Of a stretch of DNA of 64,000 bases, positions 60,001 to 63,000 are shown piece after piece; position 1 is the stretch's first letter; the number at the start of each line of letters is the position of its first letter. The position numbers were made by a program. The stretch comes from Escherichia coli (GTDB taxonomy: Bacteria > Pseudomonadota > Gammaproteobacteria > Enterobacterales > Enterobacteriaceae): assembly GCF_003790525.1 (NCBI RefSeq), contig NZ_CP033635.1; one strand, 5' to 3'.

Positions 60001-63000
60001 CAATACCGGACAATATGACGTGAAGGATTAACCCTATGAATAACAGCAGCAATACCACAACCCGTAATACGCTTTCACCCGTTGAGTCAGCCTGTCATGC
60101 CTTACTGGATTTTATTGCCCGGGAAGTTTTTGAGAATAAAGCACCGGAAGAGGACGTCAGGGAACGTTGCAAAGTATTTACAGCGCTGCTTAACGAAGGA
60201 TTTAAAGCCCTGCTTGATGAGGCAGGGCTGAATCTGTCAAACCTTCGTAAACAGTGTGAGGAACTGGAATCTCAGATAACCAGACTTGATTCTCAGTCCG
60301 ATGCTATTTGTCGCAGAGGTGCTCAAATTGAACGCTTCATTGGTCACCATTTACCTTTTTTCGATTTGAACAAAGTTTTTGATACTGCCAGTCAGTCATG
60401 TGAACCAGCGCCTTCTCCGGCTCAGTCGGCTGTGTCCAGTAGTCAGCCCAGTAATCTGTCAGAGCAAGGGACATCTCAGCGGGTGTCATCTGTTCAACCG
60501 TTGCAGGGAGCCAGTGATGTTGATGAATAAGAGCAAACTTAACGGCTTGTTGAACGCTGATACTGTTATCGTCCAGAAAAAACCAGCGGCGGCTGTTAAT
60601 CAGCCAGTGTCCGAGCCAGCAAAGTCGGTAAGCGAGCTTCCGGTCAGCTCCGGGAAAGATTTCTGTTCCCTGGTCAAAGAAGGTTTTGCACCGTTCCACA
60701 TCGTCGGTGCTCATACCTCCGACTTTCCAGTTTTCATAATATTTTGCCATGTTGCCATCCTCATCATGGTTGTTATCAATGCCGGACGGCAGTTGCTGAT
60801 GATTTGTGTTCATAAGGTATTTCTCTTCGTAAACATGTTGATTATGAGCGCAAATATGCTGTACGTACCTTCTGACCGGGGTCGGCAAACTTACCGGTCG
60901 GAAAATGTACAGAAAGTTATGGGCCTTTTATGCCCTGCAACTGTTCGTCCGGCACCCGTTTTCGTTTTTTTGCATGGTGGGTTTGCTGTGAAACAGGCTC
61001 CGTTTGCCCGGGAGGTGGCGTATGTCTGAACGCTATATTCCATGCTCCGTTGATGCAGAGCAGGCCGTGCTGGGCGGCCTGATGCTCGATAATGAACGCT
61101 GGGATGAGGTGGTACTGATGCTCCGGGGGGAGGATTTTTCTCTGGCCGCACACCGGGTGATATTCCGCACCATGTCAGAGCTGGCAACCAGCGGTCAGCC
61201 GTTCGACCTCATCACGCTGAGTGAGCATATTGAGAAAACAAACAATATTGAGGCACTGGGTGGTTTCGCTTATCTGGCTGAACTCAGCAAAAATACGCCT
61301 TCTGCAGCCAATATTATCGCTTATGCCCGTATTGTTGCTGAAAAGAGCATGCTGCGTCAGTTGCAGGAGACGGGGAATGCGCTGATTACGGATGTGGCCG
61401 CACCGGATGCGACACCACGCACTGTTCTTGAATCCGCTGAACGTCGGCTCTTTTCACTTTCACAGACTGGCATGTTGCATGAGCGATGTGAAGTCAGTCT
61501 CACCTCGGCTATGGAGCTGGCGCTGCGTCAACTGGAAGAGGGACTGAACGCCGGCGGGATGACGGGCACGCCCACGGGATTTGATGAACTGGATGAGATG
61601 ACCTGTGGTCTGCAGCCCGGCGACCTCATTCTTCTGGCTGCACGCCCGTCTATGGGGAAAACAGCGCTGGGCCTTACCTTCTGTCTTAATGCCCTGTGTA
61701 ACCGGACCGATGAAACGGTATTTCTTTTCAGTATCGAAATGTCCCGGGAGCAGCTGATTCTGCGTGTCCTGTCAATGCTCTCCAGGGTGGAGCTGACACG
61801 TCTTCGCAGCAGCATGATGGATGATGAAGAGTGGGCGAGAGTCACGGCAACCATGGGACGCTTCATGAATGAAGCGTCATTCATCGGAGATGGAAACCGC
61901 CTGATAATTGATGACACCTCCTTCCAGACGCCGTCATCGCTGCGTGCCAGCGCCCGTCGTTATGTCCGTCTGTATGGCAGACCTTCCCTGATAATGGTTG
62001 ATTACCTCCAGCTGATTCGTTCTCCGGACCAGGAGAACCGAACGCAGGAAATTGCGGAAATATCCCGCGCGCTTAAGGCGTTAGGTAAAGAGCTGGGATG
62101 CCCGGTACTGGCACTGTCTCAGCTTAACCGTCAGGTGGAGCAGCGGGCGGATAAACGCCCCAATAACGGTGACCTGCGTGATTCCGGGGCGCTGGAGCAG
62201 GATGCTGACCTCATTATGTTTATTTACCGTGACGAGGTTTATAACTCCGGCACGCTGGATAAGGGCGTTGCTGAAATCATTGTGAGCAAACAGCGGCAGG
62301 GACCAACCGGAACGATACGGGTGAACTTCGACGGCCGCTACACCCTGTTTTCACCGTTTGAACGTGGATGGAATTTTGACCGTGCCGGAGGAAATGCGTA
62401 TGTCAATTAAACGAAATCATTCCGTTGATCTGGGGGCTGCCATCATGCAACCGGGCCGTCAGGCCAGCACGGCAGGTAACGTGGTGGCGCTGGGGGAAAC
62501 ACCGATGATTCTGACGCTGGATCAACTGCGCCCCAACCCGGATAACCCGAGGACCACGCGTAATCCACGGTACGACGATATTAAAAGTTCAATTTTCTCC
62601 CGTGGACTGGATACGGTGCCCAAAGTCACCCGGATACCTGAGAGTGAGCCGGATATCTATATTTTCAGCGATGGCGGTAACACGCGATATCAGATCCTGA
62701 AAGAGCTGTGGGAAGAGACCGGTGATCAGCGTTTCTACCGTATTCATGTGCTTTTCAAGCCATGGCCGGGACGGCTTCAGTGCGTCATTGGTCACCTGGC
62801 GGAGAATGAAGTCAGGGGCGAACTGACGTTTATTGAAAAGGCCCGGGGTATCCATAAAGCACGGATGATTTATGAAGAGCAGTTAAGCAAAAGTGTGTCC
62901 ATGCGAGAGTTGTCATCCCTTTTGACTGAGCAGGGATTACCGGTGGATGCATCCAGTATCAGCCGTATGGAGAACACCCTGAAATACCTGTATCCGTGGA

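Follow-up and report, generated by a model that had tools for sequence, protein, structure and literature searches.

A conserved antisense gene, a putative translated bridge and a structured element in the parA-dnaB gap of an SPI-7-type island of Escherichia coli

The stretch of DNA analysed here, referred to below as the window, comprises 64,000 nucleotides (nt) of Escherichia coli (NCBI RefSeq assembly GCF_003790525.1, contig NZ_CP033635.1) and holds towards its right end a replication and partition module of SPI-7 type, in which a ParA-type ATPase gene is followed by the gene of an island-type DnaB helicase (dnaB-PI) and, beyond it, by parB, annotated by RefSeq on identical DNA as a large ParB. 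The 1.07-kb gap between parA and dnaB-PI holds three open reading frames (ORFs), A and B on the plus strand and C on the minus strand. We are highly confident that C is a real, conserved protein gene, constrained over its full length. The overall explanation that we favour, with moderate confidence, is that C is the constrained protein of this gap and that the tail of A together with B would make up a translated bridge leading to dnaB.

An earlier note on this DNA, made from the sequence alone, had described two overlapping ORFs of opposite strand in the gap. Both are indeed there, A with 164 amino acids (aa) from an ATG (60036-60530) and the minus-strand frame with 183 aa from a TTG (60337-60888), as are the quoted peptides, and the overlap, estimated at about 190 bp, measures 194 bp (60337-60530); a third ORF, B, had been missed. 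Identical DNA is annotated by RefSeq either as A and B (NZ_CP032265) or as C alone (NZ_CP087290), the former being the call of the Prokaryotic Genome Annotation Pipeline (PGAP) in most identical copies, and the strand ambiguity is thus present and unsettled in public annotation. We agree with the note that composition does not settle the coding strand; comparative evidence does. The three candidate ORFs imply three distinct wobble phases, and substitution patterns can therefore separate them. The window was compared, in order of falling similarity, with loci from E. coli E24377A, RM11911 and G8, with L007 (an NCBI assembly whose C protein is 74% identical), with L006 (a Logan contig of 931 bp, C protein 52% identical) and with the Logan contigs L012 and L013. 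Ratios of non-synonymous to synonymous substitution rates (dN/dS) were obtained by the Nei-Gojobori method.

Read in the frame of C, the dN/dS ratio was 0.29 and 0.17 outside the overlap with A and 0.14, 0.24 and 0.28 within it, and the 194 bp of overlap showed 22 substitutions at the third codon position of C against 9 and 5 at the other two. The minus-strand ORF, which the note had regarded as a possible small protein, is thus supported as one by comparison. The choice between one strand and the other, as the note had framed it, does not hold, since different parts code on different strands: C along its whole length and A only upstream of the overlap. The figure of up to 183 aa is right for the ORF and too long for the gene, which has 158 aa. 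C almost certainly starts at ATG 60813 rather than at TTG 60888, because every family member begins with MNT...; PGAP also starts C at 60813, and over 60814-60888 the substitutions are spread evenly across codon positions and the DNA forms part of an element conserved at the nucleotide level.

While a word-indexed search for C returned close relatives only, a profile search covering 1.84 billion representatives recovered 31 at E<=1e-3, 10 of them at E<=1e-10. Their common core, YRLxWLGxWL...A(V/I)xFxLIxxHxWLPxxVxxM(S/T)xE(E/D)LxLALTEEW, is present in the C protein of the window and takes in exactly the stretch that lies under the tail of A. With the family alignment, AlphaFold predicted an all-helical protein (mean predicted local distance difference test, pLDDT, 79.5; predicted template modelling score 0.70). 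Every island examined has a family member on the minus strand of the parA-dnaB-PI gap, its start adjoining dnaB. This placement, with the start inside the conserved element, was seen in the window, in L003, L007, L009, L012, L013 and L018 and in the 54 copies of the element described below; orientation and position are retained even in the diverged islands L009, L012/L013 and L018. Members in the gap include a 143-aa paralogue in SCU-204, a 142-aa paralogue in E24377A and a 131-aa protein in L018. Because of this fixed place beside helicase genes, the role that we consider most likely for C is a regulatory or accessory one in the island replication module, and it is proposed from position. The earlier suggestion of an anti-restriction factor found no sequence or fold similarity in Pfam, NCBIfam, PADLOC or structure searches, which gave C no family match and no structural relative. 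Scans of A, B and C against Pfam, NCBIfam, PHROGs and PADLOC yielded nothing meaningful, tblastn of C against plasmids gave no match, and a search of genome contigs with the C alignment confirmed nothing.

On the plus strand, the first 100-115 codons of A are in our view a real coding gene, with good confidence. Between the window and L007, residues 1-100 gave a dN/dS of 0.27 in the A frame, against 0.87-1.8 in the other frames, and the ATG is preceded at 7-8 nt by AAGGA, a good match to a Shine-Dalgarno sequence. A profile of the A core found homologues down to 27-30% identity, all of them within parA-dnaB gaps; every one overlaps a C gene by 179-194 nt and ends in ...GASD(A/V)xE. AlphaFold predicted helices at residues 15-33 and, very long, at 38-105, with pLDDT >90 over 15-105, and gave residues 127-159 a pLDDT <50, indicative of disorder. 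Purifying selection does not extend over the whole length of A, the tail having a dN/dS of 1.07-9.5 in its own frame. The searches with both translations that the note had called for produced the C relatives on one strand and, on the other, homologues for the core of A, its tail being unconstrained.

Whether selection keeps the A tail open was assessed by resampling the synonymous codons of C with the C protein sequence kept. The A frame remained open over the overlap in 19% of trials for the window, 33-39% for L007 and 49-54% for L006. Selection for openness is not needed here (chance P 0.19-0.54), and since the tail is stop-free by chance in 19-54% of trials it requires no special explanation. 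We regard the tail as an unconstrained, disordered appendix, presumably translated as ribosomes read on over the 3' end of C. A co-occurs with the long form of C, shorter C paralogues being found without A, and in a G8-type island the A core and most of its tail have been lost and most of C kept.

ORF B behaves in another manner. It is codon-aligned antisense to C plus C's leader, begins at the stop codon of A and ends 8 nt within dnaB, its own stop (61027-61029) lying inside the helicase gene (ATG 61022); the geometry is equal in all clades. Protein-level purifying selection was not seen (dN/dS 0.93-1.7), substitutions outside C are flat over the three phases (30/30/32), and B has no homologue beyond what the conservation of C imposes. 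The C-terminal peptide of B (..SDRGRQTYRSEN..VRPAP..) was considered as a conserved protein segment and rejected, its substitutions being even over codon positions. What is conserved is the absence of stops. Copies of the structured element were collected from E. coli genomes and metagenomes (n=54, 40 unique), and the B frame was open in all 54, over 111-273 codons, the other two plus-strand frames being open for only 8-64 and 10-90 codons. In all cases it covers the distance between the stop codon of the preceding plus-strand gene (parA, A or that of a cassette) and a stop lying slightly inside the following plus-strand gene.

In a codon-aligned antisense frame, stops in B can arise only from the C codons TTA, CTA and TCA. 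Where B must cross C-family genes of five diverged clades, none of the 93 leucine and serine codons is one of these three, which neighbouring genes use for 6-22% of such codons; the probability of finding none is 0.28, 0.15, 0.14, 0.004 and 0.23 for the respective clades. Other rare codons are at least as frequent in C as in its neighbours, so the avoidance is specific. Over the roughly 200 nt from the ATG of C to the next gene there are no stops in the B frame and 1-9 in the other frames, the probability of a stop-free leader being 0.04-0.09 per clade by dinucleotide shuffling. Furthermore, five independent inactivations of C-family genes were all in-frame nonsense changes (W122*, W66*, G31*, Q6* and W54*) without a single frameshift, and B is open in each. 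In no lineage does the junction of the A stop with the B start vary, and among its unchanged positions are five consecutive synonymous sites of C (L95 CTT, I96 ATT, H99 CAT, H100 CAC and L102 CTC). The B frame is open much more consistently than codon bias or chance would predict, and on balance it appears to be kept open by selection that places no constraint on the protein sequence.

The same junction sequence, GTGATGAATAA, in which the stop of the upstream gene overlaps an ATG of the B frame, joins parA to B in L018 (~4480-4500, -) and A to B in the window (60515-60530), and the C-terminus of A (...DE*) mimics that of the L018 ParA (...GGRDE*). These identities suggest a conserved re-initiation site that would have travelled with the A cassette upon its insertion.

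Ahead of dnaB the B frame crosses a 183-nt structured element, which is antisense to the leader, ribosome-binding site, start codon and codons 1-13 of C and ends about 60 nt before dnaB. Some 200 nt (60772-60970) are conserved at the nucleotide level, wobble positions included, and a search of 5,426 complete E. coli genomes located this stretch in 138 of them, at <=4 places per genome and mostly unannotated. The element always lies just 5' of dnaB-PI, with a duplicate ahead of every additional plus-strand cassette gene. From 13 copies we built a covariance model; it recovered 43, on whose alignment the pairing statistics were computed. For the plus-strand fold, 96.7% of the cells are paired (slid controls 32-42%) and 11 pairs show double changes; none of 500 shuffled alignments matched the observed fold. 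The 17-bp closing stem is preserved by three double changes in L012, which belongs to the most diverged clade. Several measures indicate the strand: 186 G.U against 11 A.C cells, 96.7% of cells paired for plus against 88.0% for minus, a consensus energy from RNAalifold of -64.4 against -43.2 kcal/mol, and for the window a minimum free energy of -77.8 kcal/mol (z -7.0) against -64.0 (z -5.6). These comparative data assign the fold to the plus strand; a minus-strand fold, as a 5' leader of C, was considered and is less likely by the same comparison. Over 60000-61200, no Rfam 15 family matched at E<=1. A U-rich tract comes after the GC-rich closing stem in most clades, ~40-60 nt before dnaB; a simple terminator scan did not call this stem, which encloses three hairpins. 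The most conserved core of the element, GACCGGGGTCG(C/G)CAAACTTACCGGTC (60870-60905, all copies), consists of two CCGG-centred half-sites, and there are six CCGG motifs in the 200 nt. Besides taking part in the RNA fold, the CCGG core could be a protein-binding site, for instance of ParB or of a regulator.

We propose that parA, A, B and dnaB would be read as one polycistronic message, along which the A tail and then B would form an unbroken chain of reading frames up to the dnaB start, free in sequence and maintained in openness. Ribosomes would thereby be kept on the parA-dnaB mRNA across the 0.5-0.7 kb occupied by C. The bridging ribosomes would prevent premature termination and melt the terminator-like leader ahead of dnaB, such that the helicase would be made only if upstream translation proceeds. 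The specific mechanism, coupling with anti-termination, is put forward tentatively. The transcript of C, which is divergent from dnaB and fully complementary to the leader, would be a natural antisense RNA and could oppose it. It is possible, though we would not go further than that, that the whole acts as a two-strand switch for replication of an integrative conjugative element (ICE), with translation of the B frame melting the 183-nt leader to turn on DnaB and the C transcript serving as the antisense partner. As in leader-ORF coupling, B ends over the dnaB start and the leader has a conserved structure on the mRNA strand.

Several points weigh against this explanation. That B and the A tail are translated is something we infer from their sequences. 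The product of the five codon-avoidance probabilities, 6e-6 if the clades were independent, overstates the significance, as do all such multiplied values, because the lineages share ancestry; the per-clade P is mostly 0.04-0.28. C is rich in tryptophan, which alone raises the rate of nonsense relative to frameshift inactivation, and a run test for invariant synonymous columns at the junction was marginal (P=0.05). The one exception is the diverged L006 contig, where a stop interrupts the B frame. The U-rich tract is absent from the L008/L009 clade, a structure of -78 kcal/mol within a translated frame is awkward, a promoter scan found no sigma-70-like promoter for C, and the function of C is without support from homology.

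The best-surviving alternative keeps C and the A core as real, takes the A tail and B as functionless shadow ORFs and assigns the element to ordinary double-stranded regulatory DNA, as a divergent promoter/operator shared by C and dnaB in which inverted repeats would bind protein. Codon-aligned antisense frames are the classic form of shadow ORF, and B, lying exactly in that frame, resembles one also in its dN/dS near 1 and its flat substitution phase; the A tail is open by chance, codon composition and shared ancestry could yield open frames, and in L006 the frame does contain a stop. As for the operator, paired changes in inverted repeats could come from two half-sites bound by one protein, and the element is rich in CCGG-centred palindromes. 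However, an ordinary shadow ORF is not expected to remain stop-free, and in this frame only, through the ~200 nt of its neighbour's non-coding leader, nor to join flanking genes by overlapping stops and starts, nor to lie, in five diverged clades, opposite a gene that uses none of the three stop-complement codons and yet tolerates other rare ones. B also stays open in every element copy, even where C is broken, and C is broken by nonsense changes alone. The excess of G.U over A.C cells means that one strand folds, which is unexpected for operator sites in double-stranded DNA. We consider this alternative unlikely, if by no means negligible.

It is very improbable that C alone is real and A spurious throughout. 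A has no family match, PGAP omits it in some genomes, and the G8-type island dispensed with nearly all of it while retaining most of C, but the purifying selection confined to the A frame of the core, the residues and position conserved among homologues at 27-30% identity, the confidently predicted helices and the good Shine-Dalgarno sequence all speak for a genuine gene.

An action of the element as single-stranded DNA (ssDNA) during conjugative transfer, either as an Frpo-like promoter for early expression of C from the plus strand as the putative transferred strand or as a single-strand initiation site for synthesis of the complementary strand, is likewise highly doubtful. The fold of one strand, the tolerance of G.T and the presence of 1-3 repeats per island would fit, and in related islands the corresponding end, with its genes ssb, topB and radC, is needed for transfer (PMC3739013). 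Frpo is a structured ssDNA upstream of leading-region genes in which a hairpin recreates -35 (TTGACA) and -10 (TATAAT) boxes at normal spacing (PMC11541004). Like Frpo, the window element is repeated, strongly structured, strand-specific and placed upstream of genes near the end of a conjugative element; unlike Frpo, it has no -35/-10 hexamers in its stems or elsewhere and no UP element in its stems, is multi-branched rather than one long hairpin, and shows no sequence similarity that we could see. A promoter of Frpo type was rejected, as no promoter-like site was present in 60772-61021 on either strand and no stem is long enough for both boxes. An ssDNA role would also leave the openness of the B frame unexplained. 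Lastly, that only the plus-strand genes A and B are real and C is a shadow ORF, the majority RefSeq annotation, which does place an operon-like chain of plus-strand ORFs with stops overlapping starts, is scarcely credible given purifying selection on the C frame (0.14-0.29) and not on that of B (0.93-1.7), the distant relatives of C with their conserved core and confident fold, and the lack of any B homologue that C does not impose.

Leader-ORF coupling combined with control by antisense RNA is familiar from tap/repA with CopA in IncFII plasmid R1 and from repY/repZ with Inc RNA in IncI-alpha and IncB plasmids. In those systems, as in the window, a short ORF without protein function of its own runs up to or over the start of a replication gene, there is strong structure in the leader, and the transcript of the opposite strand is complementary to it. 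The window differs in that the bridging ORF has 170-270 codons, the opposite transcript encodes a conserved protein and the downstream gene is a DnaB-type helicase instead of an initiator; coupling is proposed here by analogy.

In the ICEHin1056/SPI-7 family, parA, dnaB and parB are adjacent ORFs at one end of the island (PMC3739013), and the importance of the module for island transfer is known. The window has the same genes in the same order at one island end; the published description mentions nothing between parA and dnaB, be it an antisense gene, a spacer ORF or a structured element (PMC3739013). Our analysis adds to this module a conserved gene family not described before and a structured element that Rfam lacks, and settles the annotation conflict as to the conserved product, which is C (WP_001354423.1). 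Convergent overlapping genes, shadow ORFs and leader coupling are known kinds of arrangement; the protein family and the structured element are new. If the plus-strand frames are translated, they would offer a rare, testable case of an antisense frame with a selective reason that can be stated, namely that ribosomes are kept on the operon mRNA. If the explanation is true, B would be a clean natural example of a frame selected for its openness and not for its encoded product, and the locus would be a two-strand switch governing replication of an ICE. The features are listed in Table 1.

Table 1 Features of the parA-dnaB region in the window (positions in nt)
Feature	Position	Strand	Remarks
kpsF	56751-57770	-	precedes the left end of the SPI-7-type genomic island, which lies at the right end of the window
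parA (292 aa)	59069-59947	+	Pfam AAA_31 1.9e-17, CbiA, ParA; RefSeq 'ParA family protein'
ORF A core, ~residues 1-115	60036-60380	+	helical, probably coiled-coil protein
ORF A tail, ~64 codons	60337-60530	+	S/Q-rich; overlies the 3' end of C
A-stop/B-start junction, GGGAGCCAGTGATGTTGATGAATAA	60506-60530	+	Shine-Dalgarno-like GGGAG, 6 nt, ATG 60517 (also 60523), ..TGAATAA; A stop TAA 60528-60530
ORF B	60517-61029 (open frame 60370-61029)	+	RefSeq WP_000928920.1
ORF C	60337-60813	-	158 aa from ATG 60813; all-helical (predicted); WP_001354423.1
TTG-initiated extension of the minus-strand ORF	60814-60888	-	almost certainly outside the gene; 5' leader of C
Structured element, 183 nt	60776-60958	+	conserved; closing stem of 17 bp enclosing three hairpins
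U-rich tract (CCCGTTTTCGTTTTTTT) downstream of the closing stem; dnaB Shine-Dalgarno GGGAGG next to follow	60959-61021	+	from sequence reading and alignment
dnaB-PI	61022-62410	+	RefSeq WP_000004195.1, 'SPI-7-type island replicative DNA helicase'

Relatives of C also occur in phages. Diverged members of the family match phrog_5286 (9 of 24 C-family members, best E 5.8e-9), the window protein itself falling below the PHROG threshold. A 90-aa relative lies in a prophage, divergent from a primase/VapE pair, and gp36 of Shigella phage SfIV (hypothetical, 144 aa; L047 27691-28125) carries the family core. The latter gene adjoins a repressor (UmuD-like, cI-type) and runs against the early-left operon, making it a second case of the C family antisense at a regulatory boundary. 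Unlike C of the window, the phage members have ~90 aa and lack its N- and C-terminal extensions, and their contexts differ, beside a cI-like repressor or divergent from primase/VapE.

A PDB profile search had linked C to TAL effectors (summed hits, E 7e-12). We rejected this relation, as the score came from a summed short motif and C lacks tandem 34-residue repeats. Residues ~101-122 of C (60448-60513, -), with WLPxxVxxMTPxEMSLALT, resemble the start of a TAL repeat, LTPEQVVAIAS, probably through a common helix-capping motif rather than homology.

Among the C-family genes of E. coli copies L025, L026, L032, L033 and L005, several share one leucine-to-proline change in the invariant WLG motif (YRLQWPGDWL or RLC*PGHWL), in addition to the nonsense changes. 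In many E. coli islands the family thus appears to be in decay, with the plus-strand frame still intact.

Only short ORFs occupy 57771-59068, and no integrase was found in the window, there being no ORF of >=60 aa between kpsF and parA; ARAGORN found no tRNA within 55000-64000. Identical modules elsewhere carry a tyrosine integrase in this place. With integrase and tRNA not found here though identical modules have the integrase, the island copy of the window looks like an immobilised and perhaps decaying remnant. For a genome that shares this kpsF context, RefSeq records a fragment of an IS110 transposase at the corresponding place. Just upstream of parA, a 78-nt 'tRNA-Ser' (58926-59003, -) is annotated by RefSeq on identical DNA ('tRNA-OTHER' in other genomes), and a terminator-like hairpin lies near it at 58917-58889. 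Neither ARAGORN nor Rfam, which gave no tRNA match at E<=1, supported this call; it may be a tRNA-like remnant of an attachment site or a false call.

The parA-dnaB gap is modular, with 0-3 cassettes per island (L003 1917-2884; L004 3656-4916; L005 2279-5365; L007 3510-6145). Each cassette consists of a plus-strand gene, a minus-strand ORF beginning MNTxxQLPSGI and a copy of the structured element, which may, by its repetition, be a recombination point for the gain and loss of cassettes. Cassette genes include one for an 86-aa Cys-rich protein and one for a protein of 245-300 aa, whose antisense partner, an ORF of 76-132 aa, is of doubtful reality.

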